Positions 4,847 through 11,032 of a DNA stretch of 34,169 bases are shown here, in pieces. Origin of the DNA: a virus (lineage: Duplodnaviria > Caudoviricetes). The position numbers and the translations under genes are program-made. The notes beneath the pieces are model-generated. The model saw only the letters and a program-made list of their open reading frames with translations. It did no database searches and was not told where the DNA came from. The DNA is taken from positions 1-34,169 of IMG/VR virus record IMGVR_UViG_3300046167_000225, one strand, 5' to 3'. Numbering within the stretch: position 1 is the stretch's first letter; each line of letters starts with the position of its first letter.

Positions 4847-5050
4847 TTAGTTATAACCCAATGCCGCCATGCCTAGCAAGAATGCGACTAGCATCAGTGC
4901 TGCGCCGCTCGCCATAATCTCCACAGCCTCGCGCTCTCTGTAATGGCTGCGGCGTCGCCTGTTCTTCAGTGACAGCAGTAGGCCGCTAACGAATGCTGTG
5001 TGGCCAATGAGCGCTATTGCGCCTGCTGTGATTAATAAGACTGTGTTCAT
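4847..5050 (-). CDS. small two-TM membrane protein
   Basis: Two hydrophobic segments separated by a basic loop (KNRRRRSHYRER); RBS TAAGGAG. Confidence 0.7.
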   Translation of the reverse strand: MNTVLLITAGAIALIGHTAFVSGLLLSLKNRRRRSHYREREAVEIMASGAALMLVAFLLGMAALGYN

Positions 5051-5062
5051 TTGTCTTGCTCC

Positions 5063-5383
5063 TTAGTCGTTTTCTAGTTCTGCGTATGCTTCGTGACAAG
5101 CGCCTAGCAGCGTTGCATAAGCCAACTGCGTTGCGTGGTTTGCGAACGAGTCAAACTTCTCATAGCCGATGTCGTCTAGGTAATCCTCGCCCTCGTTAGT
5201 GTCACACTCAGCACAGAGGATGATTGCTTTATAGGTGTGGATGACCCACTCGTGACCGTCGCACATCTGGTTTAGCATCTCACCTGCGTCTGTGCCGTAT
5301 TCTTTCTGCTCAAGCATTGCCGCAGCTGCTATCTCTTTCGCTTCTTGTCGTAGGATGTAGTCGTTGATTCTAAAGTCAGTCAT
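5063..5383 (-). CDS. acidic early protein, possible Ocr-like DNA mimic
   Basis: 106 aa with roughly 23 D/E against 6 K/R; strong RBS; early position. The function is an inference. Confidence 0.7.
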   Translation of the reverse strand: MTDFRINDYILRQEAKEIAAAAMLEQKEYGTDAGEMLNQMCDGHEWVIHTYKAIILCAECDTNEGEDYLDDIGYEKFDSFANHATQLAYATLLGACHEAYAELEND

Positions 5384-5407
5384 GGTTGTTGCTCCTTAGT
5401 TAGTGTT

Positions 5408-5425
5408 GCGCCTCTTGCGAGGCGC
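5408..5425 (-). other. intergenic GNRA-tetraloop hairpin
   Basis: Minus strand GCGCCTC-GCAA-GAGGCGC, perfect 7-bp stem with no U tract. Confidence 0.6.
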
Positions 5426-5434
5426 TGTAGTTGT

Positions 5435-5737
5435 TTAAGCGTTAACTATATCAAATATTGCATTACATTCTTTGTTGTCGTAGCAGTCGCTAATTAGCTC
5501 GCTACCGTCTGACTCGTTGCCAAAGATCAAGTAGAACCAAATACCCTCAGCAACTAGCTCGTCTTCGCCCGATGCTGCTAGCTCAGCCAGTATCGCTTCG
5601 ATGTCTGTGCTGTCTTCTATCTCAGCCTCTTCGCCGCCATTCCAGACGCTAATAGCGTGTCCGCGATTAACAAGCTCTGTGACTAGCTTACGTGCTACCA
5701 GTGCCTCGCCGTGTGTTGCGTATTTTTCTAAGCTCAT
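5435..5737 (-). CDS. acidic hypothetical early protein
   Basis: 100 aa, very E/D-rich, RBS TAAGGAG. Confidence 0.75.
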   Translation of the reverse strand: MSLEKYATHGEALVARKLVTELVNRGHAISVWNGGEEAEIEDSTDIEAILAELAASGEDELVAEGIWFYLIFGNESDGSELISDCYDNKECNAIFDIVNA

Positions 5738-5748
5738 GGTGTTGCTCC

Positions 5749-5940
5749 TTAGTAGTCAAAGTCTATGTAGACAATTGTAGTGCCTTTTAGGTATACAGCG
5801 CGGCTGATGTCAAGCCAGTCGTTCAGTGCGTAGCGCTTATCGCTGCGGTCATAGTCGCCGCGTGTAAACACTGTTTGAGCGTCTGGCTTGCGTTTAACGA
5901 ACTCGCCGCGGGGTACGTCTTTCAACATAATTGATTGCAT
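5749..5940 (-). CDS. first early gene, hypothetical
   Basis: 63 aa, RBS GAGGT; first ORF downstream of the sigma54-site cluster. Confidence 0.75.
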   Translation of the reverse strand: MQSIMLKDVPRGEFVKRKPDAQTVFTRGDYDRSDKRYALNDWLDISRAVYLKGTTIVYIDFDY

Positions 5941-6190
5941 AATTTATTACCTCTATAAGTGAATGTAGAGTTCATTGGAGCACGCGCCACAATGTCTAGT
6001 CAAACTATTTATCAACTAATTTACCTATTGTATTACTTCCTTATATAGACGTTCCTTTGCAGCTCTAATTGTGGCCTTTGATCGATTTTCTCGCTGACGC
6101 CACGATCGCACCCTACTCAACCCACTTGTTTAGCCTATGTCTAGCGTTGCTTAGACAGCCTCTATGGAGCTGCTAGGACTATCTGTACAG

Positions 6191-6207
6191 TTGGCACAGA
6201 CCTTGCT
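6191..6207 (+). promoter_or_regulatory. sigma54 (-24/-12) site 1
   Basis: TTGGCACAGACCTTGCT matches TGGCAC-N5-TTGCW with exact GG-N10-GC spacing. Confidence 0.8.
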
Positions 6208-6223
6208 TGTCACTTGTTAGCCT

Positions 6224-6483
6224 ATGCAACTAACATGCCAACTCAACTTTCGTGTGTATAGGGACTATATCGCTATGCAACTATCGTGCCACTGTCTGGT
6301 TTGCCTTGGTTGCCTGTATAGGCTGCAACACAGACACACACACTTGTCAAGTCTACAGAGCCTATGCAACATCTATGCCAACTCTGCAGCCTCTATAGAT
6401 ACTAAAGTAATAGCTTTACTATGTAGCTATGCAACTATCGTGCCAACTCTGCAGGCTCTGTAGCTATGCAACTATCGTGCCAA
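6224..6483 (-). promoter_or_regulatory. array of five sigma54 (-24/-12) sites facing the early genes
   Basis: Minus strand: 6224-6241 TTGGCATGTTAGTTGCAT; 6275-6292 GTGGCACGATAGTTGCAT; 6364-6381 TTGGCATAGATGTTGCAT; 6429-6446 and 6466-6483 TTGGCACGATAGTTGCAT. All are GG-N10-GC. Confidence 0.85.
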
Positions 6484-6792
6484 CTATGTCAATGCACCAA
6501 CAAAGGGCGGGGTAGCAATTTAGGGCGGGGGTGCTGTGGTGGCTGTGGAGAATTATAGTGGTAGGCTACCAAGCACAAAATAGTGCAATTTAGCAACTTA
6601 AATTTAACAAAAAAGGTCAATTTAGCAACATAGTCTATGCAATGCTAAGTAGTTGTATTAATTGAGGAAACAATTGCGTCTGCGGAGACTCTTTATTCGC
6701 CATAAATCCGCACAGTGTCACTAGTGACGCACCATAGGCAACGTTACTAACAACAGCCTATATAGCCTAACAAGAAATAGTTGAGAAAAGAC

Positions 6793-6821
6793 TTGACTTT
6801 TGAGCTAAAATGTGGTATAAA
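6793..6821 (+). promoter_or_regulatory. sigma70-type promoter for the packaging/structural arm
   Basis: TTGACT-17 bp-TATAAA with an extended -10 TGn. Confidence 0.8.
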
Positions 6822-6928
6822 TGCTACCCAGTTCATAGCATCTATAGAGAAACTATAATGCCCACGTCCGTAGGACGTTATCAGCGACTCTATACGCTCT
6901 CTAATTTGTTCCTAAAGAGGATAAAACA

Positions 6929-7060
6929 ATGATTACAACAATAGCTTTTGTTATAGCATTTGTTATTATCTCTTATTGTTGTTATTTAGTCGAAAGCACC
7001 TTTAGCGACTTACAACACGTGTTAAGCGTTATAGAGGTTGATAACAACAATGAGCAATAA
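6929..7060 (+). CDS. 43-aa N-terminal TM peptide
   Basis: Not in track. MITTIAFVIAFVIISYCCYLVESTFSDLQHVLSVIEVDNNNEQ*; RBS GAGGA; first ORF after the promoter. Confidence 0.5.
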   Translation: MITTIAFVIAFVIISYCCYLVESTFSDLQHVLSVIEVDNNNEQ

Positions 7061-7469
7061 TGACTCTATAGACTCTGAAGTCTCTAAAGACGACGTTAAA
7101 CCAAAGAAGCGGCGTGGTCGACCGCCTAAAGCCCTTGTTGAACAAAAGAAGAAGGGTAACAGAGGTCAAGTAGGGCGTCCTAAAGGTGACGCTTCAGCCA
7201 TTGAAGAGTACAAAGCTAGAATGCTTGCTAGCCCTAAGAGTAGGGAGGTCATGGATAGCATATTCAATGCTGCGTTAAACGATGACCACAAGAATCAATC
7301 AGCAGCGTGGAAGTTGATTGTTGATAGAATAATGCCTCTTAGCTACTTTGAGAAGGATAAGCTCAGTAATGGCAGAGCAGCCGTTAGCATCACGATTAAC
7401 GGCATAGACACAAATGAGCCAATAACGATTGGTGAGACTCTCGATGGAGACACAGACGATGACGTTTAA
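7050..7469 (+). CDS. terminase small subunit (putative)
   Basis: RGRP/GRPKG DNA-binding motifs, helical middle region, position upstream of TerL. Confidence 0.7.
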   Translation: MSNNDSIDSEVSKDDVKPKKRRGRPPKALVEQKKKGNRGQVGRPKGDASAIEEYKARMLASPKSREVMDSIFNAALNDDHKNQSAAWKLIVDRIMPLSYFEKDKLSNGRAAVSITINGIDTNEPITIGETLDGDTDDDV

Positions 7470-7806
7470 GTATTTTACGTTAGACGAGTTTGCTTGTAAG
7501 CACACTGGCGAGAACAAGATAGTTCCTGCGTTTGTGCGTAGGCTAGATAAGCTAAGAGCAGCCTGTGGCTTCCCATTTGTTATCACCAGTGGCTATCGTG
7601 ACCCGTCACACCCTGCAGAGGCTCGTAAGTCCAAGGGCGGGATACATACGCAAGGCATGGCTGCTGACATTGCCGTCAGTAACGGTATAGAGCGTGCTAC
7701 GATCATCCGTAACGCCATTGACTTAGGCTTTAACGGCATTGGTGTCGCTAAAGGCTTTGTACACGTTGACACAAGAGACTTGCCACAAGTTGTGTGGACA
7801 TACTAA
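7459..7806 (+). CDS. peptidase M15-family endolysin
   Basis: YFTLDEFACK, ITSGYR, H-x6-D (HTQGMAAD) and FVHVD Zn ligands; start MTFKYF after GGAG. Confidence 0.88.
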   Translation: MTFKYFTLDEFACKHTGENKIVPAFVRRLDKLRAACGFPFVITSGYRDPSHPAEARKSKGGIHTQGMAADIAVSNGIERATIIRNAIDLGFNGIGVAKGFVHVDTRDLPQVVWTY

Positions 7807-9066
7807 ATGTCTGCAACGCAAGACCTACAGATCAACCTGCTTCCTTGGCAGCAAGAAGTGTGGACAGACGAGTCACGCTTCAAAGTGGTGGCTGCAGGGC
7901 GTCGTACAGGTAAGACAAGGCTAGCGGCGTCATTGCTGCTTGTGAAGGCTTTATCGTCTAAGAACGGTAAAGTCTTTTACGTTGCGCCTACGCAAGGTCA
8001 GGCAAGGGATGTTATATGGGATATGCTGTTAGAGATGGGGCAGGGCGTTATAGCCAACAGCCACGTCAACAATCTAACACTGAAGCTGATTAACGGCTCT
8101 AGCATATCGCTGAAGGGAAGTGACAGACCAGAGACTATGCGTGGTGTTAGCTTACGCTACGTAGTCTTGGACGAGTTTGCAGACTTTAAGCCTGAGGTGT
8201 GGGAGTTGATCCTACGTCCTGCGTTGTCAGACTTAAAAGGTGAGGCGTTGTTCATTGGTACGCCGATGGGACGTAACCACTTCTACGACCTGTACACTGA
8301 AGCATCGTTAGGCAAGTTAGAGGACTATAATGCGTGGCACTTCACAAGCTACGACAACCCTCTAATTGACCCTACAGAGATAGACAGCGCTAAACGTACG
8401 TTGTCGTCTTATGCGTTCAGACAAGAGTTTATGGCGTCCTTTGAGGCGCGTGGCTCTGAGATGTTCAAGGAAGAGTGGGTTCAGTTTGACGAAGATGAGC
8501 CTGACATTGGTGACTACTACATCGCCTGTGACTTGGCAGGCTTTGAAGAGTTGGGCAAGAAGAGCAACAAAAGACTCGATAACAGCTCTATAGCCATTGT
8601 TAAAGTCAGCGAACACGGGTGGTGGGTTAAAGAGATAATCATTGGTCGTTGGACGCTAGACGAGACTGCAGCACGCATCTTTGACGCCGTCACAGAGCAT
8701 TATCCCATTGCTGTAGGCATTGAGAAGGGCATTAGCAGACAAGCTGTTATGTCGCCTCTGACAGACCTGATGAAGCGCTTTAACAAGTATTTTAGAGTAG
8801 AAGAGCTAACACACGGCAACAGAAAGAAGACCGATAGAATCATGTGGGCGCTGCAGGGCAGGTTTGAGAATGGCTACATTACGTTAAACAAGGGCGACTG
8901 GAATGTCCAATTCATGGACGAGTTGTTTCAGTTTCCCAACCATTTAGTGCATGACGACACAGTTGACTCACTGGCCTACATAGACCAGTTAGCTAATGTA
9001 GCTTACGATTGGGGCTACATTGAAGAAGACTACGAAGAATCCTTAGACAACTACGCAGGATATTAG
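7807..9066 (+). CDS. terminase large subunit
   Basis: Walker A AAGRRTGKT, Walker B VVLDE, GTP motif, nuclease CDLA and HDDTVDSLAY. Confidence 0.95.
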   Translation: MSATQDLQINLLPWQQEVWTDESRFKVVAAGRRTGKTRLAASLLLVKALSSKNGKVFYVAPTQGQARDVIWDMLLEMGQGVIANSHVNNLTLKLINGSSISLKGSDRPETMRGVSLRYVVLDEFADFKPEVWELILRPALSDLKGEALFIGTPMGRNHFYDLYTEASLGKLEDYNAWHFTSYDNPLIDPTEIDSAKRTLSSYAFRQEFMASFEARGSEMFKEEWVQFDEDEPDIGDYYIACDLAGFEELGKKSNKRLDNSSIAIVKVSEHGWWVKEIIIGRWTLDETAARIFDAVTEHYPIAVGIEKGISRQAVMSPLTDLMKRFNKYFRVEELTHGNRKKTDRIMWALQGRFENGYITLNKGDWNVQFMDELFQFPNHLVHDDTVDSLAYIDQLANVAYDWGYIEEDYEESLDNYAGY

Positions 9067-9067
9067 C

Positions 9068-11032
9068 ATGGAAGATTACAACGAAGACAGCGTCAGGTTT
9101 ATTGAAGAAGACCTAGAAAACTGGGTTATCAACAAAGTTGACAACTGGCGTGAGTTCTTTGAAACCAACTACGACGAGAAGTTTGATGAATATTATCGTA
9201 TGTGGCGTGGCATCTGGTCTGACGACGACAAGACTCGTGAGAGCGAGAGAAGCAAGATTGTCTCCCCTGCCCTACTCCAAGCTGTAGAGTCCTCTGTAGC
9301 TGACGTTGAAGAGGCTACGTTTGGGCGTGGTAAGTTCTTTGACATCCAAGACGACATGGGCGACACAGACCGCTCTGACGTGCGTTTCCTACGTGAGGCG
9401 CTGTCACAAGAGTTTACTAAGAACAAGATTAGGAAGGCTGTAGGTGAGTGTCTCATCAACGCTGCTGTGTACGGCACAGGCATTGGCGAGATAGTGCTTG
9501 AGAAGAAGAAAGAGATGGTTCCGGCTACAGAGCCTGTGATGGACGGTGCTATGACTGCCGTGGGCGTTAACGTCCGTGACCGCACTGTTGTCAAGCTACG
9601 CCCTATCCAACCCCACAACTTCCTCATTGACCCTGTAGCAACAGACATTGAGAGTGCTGTAGGTGTCGCTATTGACGAGTTTGTGTCAACGCACCTTGTA
9701 GAGCAGCTGCAGGAAGAAGGTGTTTACAAGAAGGGCTACATTGGTCGTGCAGCGCCTGATCTAGACCTAGAGCCTGACGAAGAGCTGTGGCAGCAGCCTG
9801 AAGAGAAAGTAAGGCTGACTAAATACTACGGCCTTGTGCCGCGTCACTTGCTAGAGACAGCGTTTGACGAAGAAGAAGACGAGATGGTCAACTTTGATAG
9901 TGACGTTGACGATGAAGGTAGGGACAGCTACTACGTAGAGGCTATCGTTGTTATTGCTAACGGCGGTACGCTACTGAAGGCTGAGGCATCACCTTACATG
10001 ATGTCTGACCGCCCTGTAGTGGCTTTTCCGTGGGATGTAGTGCCTAGCCGCTTCTGGGGCATGGGCGTGTGTGAGAAGGGCTTTAACAGCCAAAAGGCGC
10101 TCGATGCTGAGCTACGCGCTCGTATTGACGCTCTAGCCCTCACTGTACACCCAATGCTCGCTATGGACGCGACACGAATGCCTAGAGGCACTAAGCCTGA
10201 GGTGAAGGCAGGCAAGCTACTGTTGACCAATGGCAACCCTGCAGAGGTCATACAGCCCTTCAACTTTGGACAGGTTAGTCAGATAACGTTTGCACAGGCT
10301 GACTCCCTACAGCGCATGGTACAGGCCGCTACGGGCAGTGTTGACACAGCACAGCAGGCTATGAACGGCGGTGGTACAACGTCTGCAGGTAGCTCTATGA
10401 GCTTAGGCGGCATCATCAAGCGTCAGAAGCGCACGCTAGTGAACTTCCAAGAGTCGTTCCTGATGCCTTTCATTGAGAAGGCTGCGTGGCGTTATATGCA
10501 GTTTGAGCCTGAGTTGTTCCCTGTTAACGACTATAAGTTTGTTGCTACAAGCACACTGGGCATTGTTGCTCGTGAGTACGAAGTGGCTCAGCTAGTACAG
10601 CTGCTACAGACTATGCCGCAAGACAGCCCTGTATACCCTGTCATCATGCAGGCAGTCATTGACAACATGAACATCACTAACCGTGAAGACTTGATTGAGA
10701 CAATGATACAGGCTCAGCAGCCTAACCCTGAACAGCAGCAGATGCAGCAGGCGTTGGCAGAGGAAGACAGAGCCTTTAAGAACAGCCAGACAGCGGCTCT
10801 GAACGCTCAGGCAGCGGAGTCTAACGCTAGGGCGCAGAAGATCGCTCTAGAGGCTAGAGGCGTCCCTGTAGAGCTTGAGACGGCGCGTATTAAGGCTGTA
10901 GCGTCATCCCAAACAGCTTCTGAGAGTGATAAAGACTTTGAGAAGCGTATGAAACTAGCCAACCTTGCTCTTGATGAGAAGAAACTAGGACTAGAAGTAG
11001 CAAAGGAGAACTTTAGAAATGGTCAGCAATAA
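9068..11032 (+). CDS. portal protein
   Basis: 654 aa directly after TerL; GTGIG motif and Q-rich coiled C-terminus typical of P22-like portals. Confidence 0.88.
   Translation: MEDYNEDSVRFIEEDLENWVINKVDNWREFFETNYDEKFDEYYRMWRGIWSDDDKTRESERSKIVSPALLQAVESSVADVEEATFGRGKFFDIQDDMGDTDRSDVRFLREALSQEFTKNKIRKAVGECLINAAVYGTGIGEIVLEKKKEMVPATEPVMDGAMTAVGVNVRDRTVVKLRPIQPHNFLIDPVATDIESAVGVAIDEFVSTHLVEQLQEEGVYKKGYIGRAAPDLDLEPDEELWQQPEEKVRLTKYYGLVPRHLLETAFDEEEDEMVNFDSDVDDEGRDSYYVEAIVVIANGGTLLKAEASPYMMSDRPVVAFPWDVVPSRFWGMGVCEKGFNSQKALDAELRARIDALALTVHPMLAMDATRMPRGTKPEVKAGKLLLTNGNPAEVIQPFNFGQVSQITFAQADSLQRMVQAATGSVDTAQQAMNGGGTTSAGSSMSLGGIIKRQKRTLVNFQESFLMPFIEKAAWRYMQFEPELFPVNDYKFVATSTLGIVAREYEVAQLVQLLQTMPQDSPVYPVIMQAVIDNMNITNREDLIETMIQAQQPNPEQQQMQQALAEEDRAFKNSQTAALNAQAAESNARAQKIALEARGVPVELETARIKAVASSQTASESDKDFEKRMKLANLALDEKKLGLEVAKENFRNGQQ

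Follow-up and report, generated by a model that had tools for sequence, protein, structure and literature searches.

The sigma-54 element is defined by GG and TGC at -24/-12 (PMC3844500, PMC4591121), and sigma-54 holoenzyme without an enhancer-binding protein remains in a stable closed complex (PMC3844500). According to the consulted sections of these studies, most chromosomal sigma-54 sites are silently occupied (PMC4591121), being mostly bound by transcriptionally inactive holoenzyme, and they are conserved at the important positions and variable at the unimportant ones (PMC4591121, PMC3844500). In the same sections, intragenic sites gave no roadblock effect on expression in E. coli (PMC4591121). 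The phage sites described here carry the same -24 GG/-12 TGC element as these silent sites, known from ChIP-seq in E. coli (PMC4591121) and from Salmonella (PMC3844500). However, the chromosomal sites are single and scattered, whereas the phage arrays comprise 2-9 sites in 300 bp, which would lie on alternating helix faces and at a DNA end.

Among phages, a cluster of host-protein sites in gene-free terminal-repeat DNA is likewise found in the injection stop region of T5, described in silico (10.1101/866236). In the consulted part of that work, the DnaA boxes of T5 show rigid conservation and sit 6-9.5 kb into a repeat of 10 kb, whereas our locus has a putative repeat of ~235 bp, mainly sigma-54 as predicted ligand and a cassette that relatives swap freely. 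In the sources consulted, we found a single printed report that ascribes use of host sigma-54 to a phage, Pseudomonas phage YuA, whose P015 is given as a sigma-54-like promoter in PMC10914365, citing Ceyssens 2008. As far as the consulted parts of that paper go, this precedent looks weak, and it concerns a single internal promoter without array, unlike our locus. The YuA genome contains no match to YTGGCAY-N6-TGC. The upstream sequence listed for P015 in the supplement is TTGACC-17-TACAAT, which is sigma-70-like (PMC10914365). Furthermore, effects of rpoN on Salmonella phages have been explained as indirect, according to the consulted part of PMC8744999. The original prediction did not recognise a dense terminal array as a described feature, and no published account of such arrays at the ends of phage DNA came up in our literature search either, although the original genome papers of VpV262 and YuA could mention the sites. 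What is new here is the avoidance of whole helical turns, a putative repeat holding three sites, the replacement of the cassette by DnaA boxes, by one site or by no site at all in near-identical relatives, and the sites of VpV262.

The window, i.e. the whole stretch of 34,169 bases analysed here, is a phage record that looks complete, a polymerase gene spanning the join of its ends. Its layout resembles that of Zobellviridae-type podoviruses (VpV262, RIO-1, the cobaviruses ICBM1 and SIO1), which likewise have divergent arms, a T7-like primase/helicase and no RNA polymerase; the short terminal repeat that these phages have ahead of the early arm is putative in the window. Two gene arms diverge from a gene-free gap (5940-7050). 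The minus-strand arm carries small early genes, a T7-like primase/helicase (43-44% to cobaviruses), PolA, an exonuclease and a ribonucleotide reductase; the plus-strand arm carries a likely TerS, a peptidase, TerL, portal, capsid and tail genes. Searches by TerL, capsid and primase revealed no close cultured relative (TerL at most 43% and capsid below 32% identity), so that a place in the Zobellviridae is only tentative. A BLASTN search of cultured phages with the array yielded chance matches only. As originally predicted, neither an activator nor an RNA polymerase is recognisable: the enhancer-binding protein domain PF00158 was found neither in the window nor in any of the 34 genomes of the set, no GAFTGA-like motif occurs in the six-frame translation of the window, and no RNA polymerase was found among the 44 of 154 listed ORFs compared with PHROGs. 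T5-like A1/A2 families were also absent from the 44 ORFs scanned.

Words of this phage were found in seawater runs, RNA runs containing only about one tenth of them. Three matches in genome_contigs are distant and lie in bins of unrelated taxa, giving no host assignment. Boxes that we take to be of LexA type (CTGT-N8-ACAG) and Fur type in relatives point to a gamma- or betaproteobacterial host. In addition, a hairpin (GCGCCTC-TTGC-GAGGCGC, 5408-5425) located between early genes is kept in relatives whose flanking genes differ and is a possible processing site or recombination joint.

Exact matches to TGGCA-N6-TTGC number six in the window, five on the minus and one on the plus strand, and all lie within 291 bases (6192-6482; Table 1), whereas the reversed pattern used as control has none. 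All six keep the GG-N10-GC spacing and the five minus-strand copies end in TTGCAT. The six-site cluster of the original prediction is therefore exact and its spacers (CGATAG, TGTTAG, TAGATG, CAGACC) are correct, and the expectation that a genome scan would place the top matches only here holds for the exact sites. With one mismatch allowed, 22 matches are found against 10.6 expected, a number reached in none of 100 shuffles. Successive minus-strand sites are 37, 65, 89 and 51 nt apart. An identical array is present on an independent contig (L001/L146), and a contig of public run X1 covering 5346-6562 carries it with two differences, neither inside the array. A 79-aa ORF across the array (6224-6463) was set aside since relatives vary freely in copy number and spacing.

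Table 1. Coordinates of the features discussed, in the window unless a relative is named.
Feature	Position	Strand	Remark
First early ORF	5749..5940	-	63 aa, no family; 285 nt downstream of last inward -12 box
Sigma-70-like early promoter remnant	5974..6003	-	-35 TTGACT behind A/T-rich tract; poor -10 TCCAAT
Conserved gene-free module	6040..6190	-	accompanies site 6; neither strand has compensatory pairs; Rfam without convincing match
Putative sigma-54 site 6	6192..6206	+	away from early genes; expected start 6218
Putative sigma-54 site 5	6226..6240	-	head-to-head with site 6; expected start 6214
Putative sigma-54 site 4	6277..6291	-	just inside unique early arm
Putative direct terminal repeat	6325..6560		~235 bp; from contig ends in relatives and annotated ICBM1 repeat
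Conserved element E1	6325..6350	-	RAGTGTGTG...RTGY; shared start register of 5/29 terS-side contigs
Putative sigma-54 site 3	6366..6380	-	41 nt from putative inner boundary of terminal repeat
Putative sigma-54 site 2	6431..6445	-	37 nt (3.5 helical turns) from site 1
Putative sigma-54 site 1	6468..6482	-	toward early genes; ~78 nt from putative outer end
G-tract pair	6505..6533	+	C-tract on early strand; family-wide anchor adjoining array
Conserved element E2	6550..6583	+	around putative outer end; starts of L337, L405
Sigma-70-like late promoter	6793..6822	+	TTGACT-17-TATAAA, toward terS; read from sequence, kept in relatives
Likely terminase small subunit	7050..7469	+	from position; no family match
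Terminase large subunit	7807..9066	+	query for gathering relatives
Single sites of freshwater relatives (examples)	L373:2821-2835; L380:4601-4615; L405:3180-3194		ten more loci

The TerL search yielded 80 viral and 80 metagenome loci. Of 241 loci in all, 168 had a TerS match and the G-tract, 132 of these had 400 nt of early-side DNA, and 90 were distinct. Among these 90 distinct 400-nt cassettes, anchored on the G-tract and freed of near-duplicates, 61 were found via TerL alone, i.e. without using the motif; the anchor may be misplaced in L077, L313 and L314, and the lone loose site of L038 is probably due to chance. GGCA-N6-TTGC occurs 115 times in the 61 TerL-found cassettes against 1.2 in shuffles, and TGGC-Nk-TGC occurs there 4, 3, 13, 134, 1, 0 and 3 times for k from 5 to 11. 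In all 90 cassettes, motif-found loci included, 241 strict sites occur in 36 kb, against none in 391 kb of coding DNA. The conserved boxes with divergent spacers that the original prediction expected in related phages are indeed found: GG, TGC and their spacing are kept while the middle of the motif is free.

The fuller sigma-54 consensus is YTGGCACG-N4-TTGCW. In 113 distinct sites of the family and 134 distinct sites of unrelated phages, the positions not used as anchors also match the sigma-54 consensus, with TT before GG, A then C/T after GGC, T before TGC and A/T after it; the important -24/-12 positions are as in the consulted part of PMC4591121. Tandem site pairs occur in about 510 viral stretches (an estimate from 15 of the 64 parts of viral_contigs), against 28 with one extra base. 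Of the 80 tandem-pair matches that were read with their flanks, 31 were treated as unrelated phages, no match to TerS, TerL or early genes of the family being present in these flanks; they span 31-59% GC and have unrelated terminases and the same logo. The presence of the same motif in unrelated phages argues for a conserved host ligand and points to sigma-54, the factor that recognises GG and TGC at -24/-12. Hence, the six sites of the window are likely to bind host sigma-54 RNA polymerase. Binding of another protein, such as the terminase or a phage replication protein, with a fortuitous likeness to sigma-54 sites, would suit a motif adjoining packaging genes and putative ends, but is very improbable given that the same consensus, unanchored positions included, recurs in phages of 31-59% GC with unrelated terminases, one of them phi29-like, and that the motif is missing from some phages with 92-97% identical TerL.

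The spacing-specificity, the unanchored consensus and the excess of tandem pairs together suggest that the sites were selected as binding sites. The original argument for selection rather than simple duplication is thus supported, although the spacer CGATAG, common to three of the five minus-strand copies, indicates that duplication contributed as well. Two further observations concern site arrangement in relatives. L093, L101, L107, L119 and L142 (~70% TerL identity) carry 7-9 sites of strictly alternating orientation in ~200 bp. Moreover, GAAC-N7-GAA(A/T) words, which to us resemble the alphaproteobacterial LexA box, lie beside sigma-54 arrays in unrelated phages (L086:1640-1670; L157:2370-2400 and 2590-2620).

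The distance between adjacent tandem sites follows a rule. Scaled to viral_contigs, spacings of 19-23 bp are absent, 24-29 bp occur ~510 times, 30 bp ~8 times and 36-38 bp ~180 times; 31-33 bp occurs 18 times in a complete scan of viral_contigs, the scans of this range covering 19-33 and 36-38 bp. This avoidance of whole turns fades above 40 bp (41 bp ~64, 42-44 bp ~32, 46-48 bp ~120). Deduplicated family pairs peak at 26, 37, 47 and 57 bp, with a phase of 0.49 relative to a 10.5-bp turn (n=84, Rayleigh p 1e-8). The p value is 0.005 for the TerL-found pairs taken by themselves (n=34) and 0.003 for unrelated loci (n=57, phase 0.66), all these p values being optimistic since relatives are not independent. 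Such a phase pattern is what would be predicted for bulky complexes bound simultaneously on opposite helix faces, implying putative co-occupancy. The footprint of a sigma-54 closed complex is ~27-30 bp, which fits a minimum spacing near 24 bp. In addition, the head-to-head arrangement of sites 5 and 6 (48-49 nt; expected starts 4 nt apart in the window) is found in 12 distinct close cassettes.

Several lines of evidence place the array at a genome end. Among the 29 distinct contigs whose start lies no further than 420 nt from the G-tract in the early direction, five (L014, L018, L259, L132 and L147), representing four phages with TerL identities of 92, 88, 66 and 76%, start at the same base, window 6325; two others start close to it, one 10 nt short and one 8 nt past. 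On the other side, the early-arm contigs L337 and L405, two of the roughly ten with a start nearby, begin 3 nt apart or less at 6558-6561. Furthermore, the annotated repeat of cobavirus ICBM1 begins 19 nt ahead of a similar C-tract. From these shared contig ends and the ICBM1 repeat we infer a direct terminal repeat, whose inner boundary is better supported than the outer one. With this repeat, each end of the virion DNA would carry sites 1-3, and the three others would lie just inside the early end. The array would thus overlap the repeat, in agreement with its initial description as terminal. Logan contigs of public runs over 5000-8000 are mixtures of strains and revealed no molecule ends; a rise in depth at 6515-6615 was not used.

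The same layout is found in the cultured Vibrio phage VpV262, where six TGGCA-N7-TGC sites (173-346), four inward and two outward, lie 35-210 nt to the inside of an annotated repeat (1-138), ORF1 beginning at 1034; this end has no relative in the cultured-phage collection. By contrast, the array is absent from seven of the nine cultured records searched (RIO-1, PA11, pYD6-A, LUZ24, YuA, ICP2 and ICBM1). G026 (L323), a phi29-like genome of 10.8 kb, carries three inward sites in each of its 366-bp inverted repeats (1-366 and 10395-10760). These repeats also each hold what we take to be a Bacteroidetes-type promoter motif, and by analogy with phi29 the DNA ends of G026 are probably protein-capped. 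Two other candidates for terminal sites were rejected: the apparent terminal repeat of G033 actually consists of two strain variants, and the pair of consensus sites of PAK_P3 (50798-50812 and 50946-50960) lies ~12 kb from the repeat reported in the consulted part of PMC13510664, long reads crossing one of them. The ICBM1 terminal repeat (L238:50-135) has no sigma-54 site; its several 16-bp half-palindromes of the TGTCA/TCACA type resemble sites of the CRP/FNR family and may make it one more type of cassette.

The cassette is exchangeable between close relatives. Among the 26 close cassettes (TerL at least 85%), 19 have at least two sigma-54 sites, one has a single site and six have none. At least two DnaA boxes are present in 9/26, two of which (L270 and L246; TerL 97%) have no sigma-54 site, and the window's own cassette has no DnaA box. 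Strict DnaA boxes number 23 in 24.4 kb of cassette DNA against none in 18.5 kb of late leader, and they are spaced by 11, 22 and 33 bp, as in origins. The array is missing from some phages with 92-97% identical TerL. The TerL tree requires 16 changes of cassette state, with swaps between tips ~0.02 apart; near-identical tips of differing state are L012/L024, L010/L011 and L246/L247, and the two strain variants of G033 differ by a DnaA pair inserted among sigma-54 sites. The number of sites in the putative repeat ranges from 0 to 4 while E1 and E2 remain. In the 35 distant cassettes, a single site is the commonest state (21/35), followed by none (9/35) and an array (5/35). Besides, four cassettes with neither sigma-54 sites nor DnaA boxes (L010, L012, L272 and L279) carry 6-9 CTAG words beside the G-tract, many of them at intervals of 10-11 or 22 bp; a third host protein might bind these words.

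Taken as a variant of the known clusters of host-protein sites, these arrays are real and widespread, their function being putative. We consider it rather probable that they are a docking platform for sigma-54 polymerase at DNA ends that does not work as a promoter. Host polymerase would occupy the six sites, which lie within the putative terminal repeat or just inward of it, in closed complexes that do not transcribe. These complexes would form a host-made protein coat on the phage DNA ends, which could slow host enzymes that attack or sense such ends during the first minutes of infection. Among the readings weighed, this coat accords best with the observations, shielding being its most probable single function. 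That unrelated phages cap their ends from swappable cassettes, using either idle sigma-54 polymerases on alternating faces or DnaA, as a gene-free counter-defence or means of end-handling before any phage protein is made, is a possibility that we put forward tentatively, and that the docked sigma-54 coat shields the ends is slightly more speculative.

Several observations count for the coat, among them the conserved consensus, the excess of tandem pairs, the spacing rule and the exchange of the cassette. In the head-to-head pair both sites could be closed but neither opened, and the position appears terminal, as judged from the contig-end register, VpV262 and G026. Other observations count against it. 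The phase signal fades above 40 bp, 41 bp being common, and partly stems from related pairs; arrays are missing at the ends of RIO-1, LUZ24, ICBM1, PA11, ICP2 and YuA. G026, probably being protein-capped, would have less need for shielding. Finally, according to the consulted part of 10.1101/142224, RecBCD is slowed (~27 bp/s) yet evicts protein arrays, RNA polymerase included, so that any delay caused by a shield would be of seconds.

The best surviving alternative is that the sites are real promoters, on which queued, poised sigma-54 polymerases fired by a host enhancer-binding protein would gate or boost early transcription according to host state. Sites point toward the early genes in 98 cases and away from them in 19, which favours promoters and counts against a coat since a shield needs no polarity. 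Moreover, the single sites of distant cassettes (21/35) are in promoter geometry in the four that were checked (L035, L058, L064 and L051, a clade with 70% identity): a distance of 47-50 nt separates the site from the ribosome-binding site and ORF that it faces, without opposing site and without sigma-70 match, which also counts against a coat. In these four loci, 1350-1550 nt upstream of TerL, the site is directly preceded by a CTGT-N8-ACAG box and by tandem GGTAACAC repeats, which might serve a host activator as enhancer; the box, presumably of LexA type, occurs in 14 single-site or empty distant cassettes, and its place upstream of the site suits a promoter. Furthermore, 13 freshwater relatives (primase 56-57% identical) have one near-invariant site with an A/T-rich leader behind it; 80-130 nt further on lies an ORF of 81-91 aa that precedes the primase. 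The site is a candidate for a true sigma-54 promoter or a timing block of the replication operon, and it is missing in the window. Together with the poor sigma-70 -10 of the window, this site supports promoters and counts against the coat. In relatives, the position matching this early remnant holds good sigma-70 promoters. The remnant is absent from the promoter-scan listings and was identified by reading the sequence; the late promoter is also missing from the scan list, its -10 ending in A.

Other observations count against promoters. The head-to-head pair would obstruct the innermost promoter, and the first ORF lies 285 nt away behind the opposing site, with no conserved RNA structure between: a structured RNA leader downstream of the array was rejected, no compensatory pair being found on either strand in 13 sequences and no Rfam match being credible. 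Sigma-54 enhancers lie 80-150 bp upstream, according to the consulted part of PMC3844500. For the window sites this zone would be the DNA end, the outermost site being ~78 nt from it, or other sigma-54 sites. A phage activator was found in none of the 34 genomes, near-identical phages have lost or replaced the array, and of the 11 relatives with an array or DnaA boxes that were checked, 7 have a sigma-70-like match downstream. The two PAK_P3 sites lie a short way upstream of an early sigma-70 promoter; this promoter has a listed start, at 51049, whereas none is given between 48439 and 51049 (PMC10914365 supplement, one growth condition); this silence, which counts for the coat, is the only information that PAK_P3 provides since its sites are not terminal. 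Activator-gated early transcription, the first reading offered by the original prediction, is therefore weakened and appears unlikely. The single promoter may be the ancestral element, whereas the array form most likely acts through occupancy. As a separate observation, L006, L022, L031, L117 and L123 have a AATGAGAATCATT box, presumably of Fur type, directly ahead of the first early gene, suggesting possible iron-dependent control.

The second reading originally offered, a decoy titrating sigma-54, is quite unlikely. Hundreds of replicated arrays would act as a sponge for host sigma-54 or DnaA, muting for example the Psp response or blocking initiation of host replication. The anti-phase spacing would maximise capacity, both orientations are tolerated and DnaA boxes could be an alternative load. 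However, until the genome is amplified, six sites would compete with 135 to >250 chromosomal ones (consulted part of PMC4591121), and a sponge has no need of a terminal position, yet the sites lie in or beside terminal repeats.

Less likely still is a landmark for processing of concatemer junctions or for replication start. T7-type phages duplicate their terminal repeat using paused phage RNA polymerase, for which a bound host protein could substitute. The window has a T7-like primase/helicase and polymerase and no RNA polymerase was found, its sites lie between E1 and E2, and the DnaA spacings of 11, 22 and 33 bp are those of origins. This reading is at odds with the 0 to 4 sites per repeat while E1 and E2 stay, and with G026, which has sites yet, being phi29-like, would package without concatemers.

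We also doubt strongly that the genome is anchored or drawn into the cell by polymerase or DnaA sitting on the bases that enter first, as with T7 A1-A3 or the T5 DnaA boxes. The early-end position, the inward bias and the in silico T5 precedent (10.1101/866236, consulted in part) fit such an entry handle, the third reading of the original prediction. Yet pulling requires transcription and hence an activator, which the phage does not have, and the putative repeat would place three sites at the last-entering end too. Moreover, the sequence shows no purge of palindromes that would mark a block as entering early, and it contains no Chi site of E. coli.

Array cassettes are common, being present in hundreds of viral contigs, and the coat model is directly testable through VpV262, a phage in culture, the helical-phase rule and the exchange with DnaA boxes. 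If the sites were promoters, they would provide a first clear example of early phage genes under a host enhancer circuit. If the coat model is true, silent sigma-54 binding would gain a function. The survival and handling of linear phage DNA that enters a cell, ahead of any phage gene expression, have long been in question, and a cassette recruiting an abundant, tightly bound and idle host polymerase would be an answer to DNA survival that requires no phage protein.
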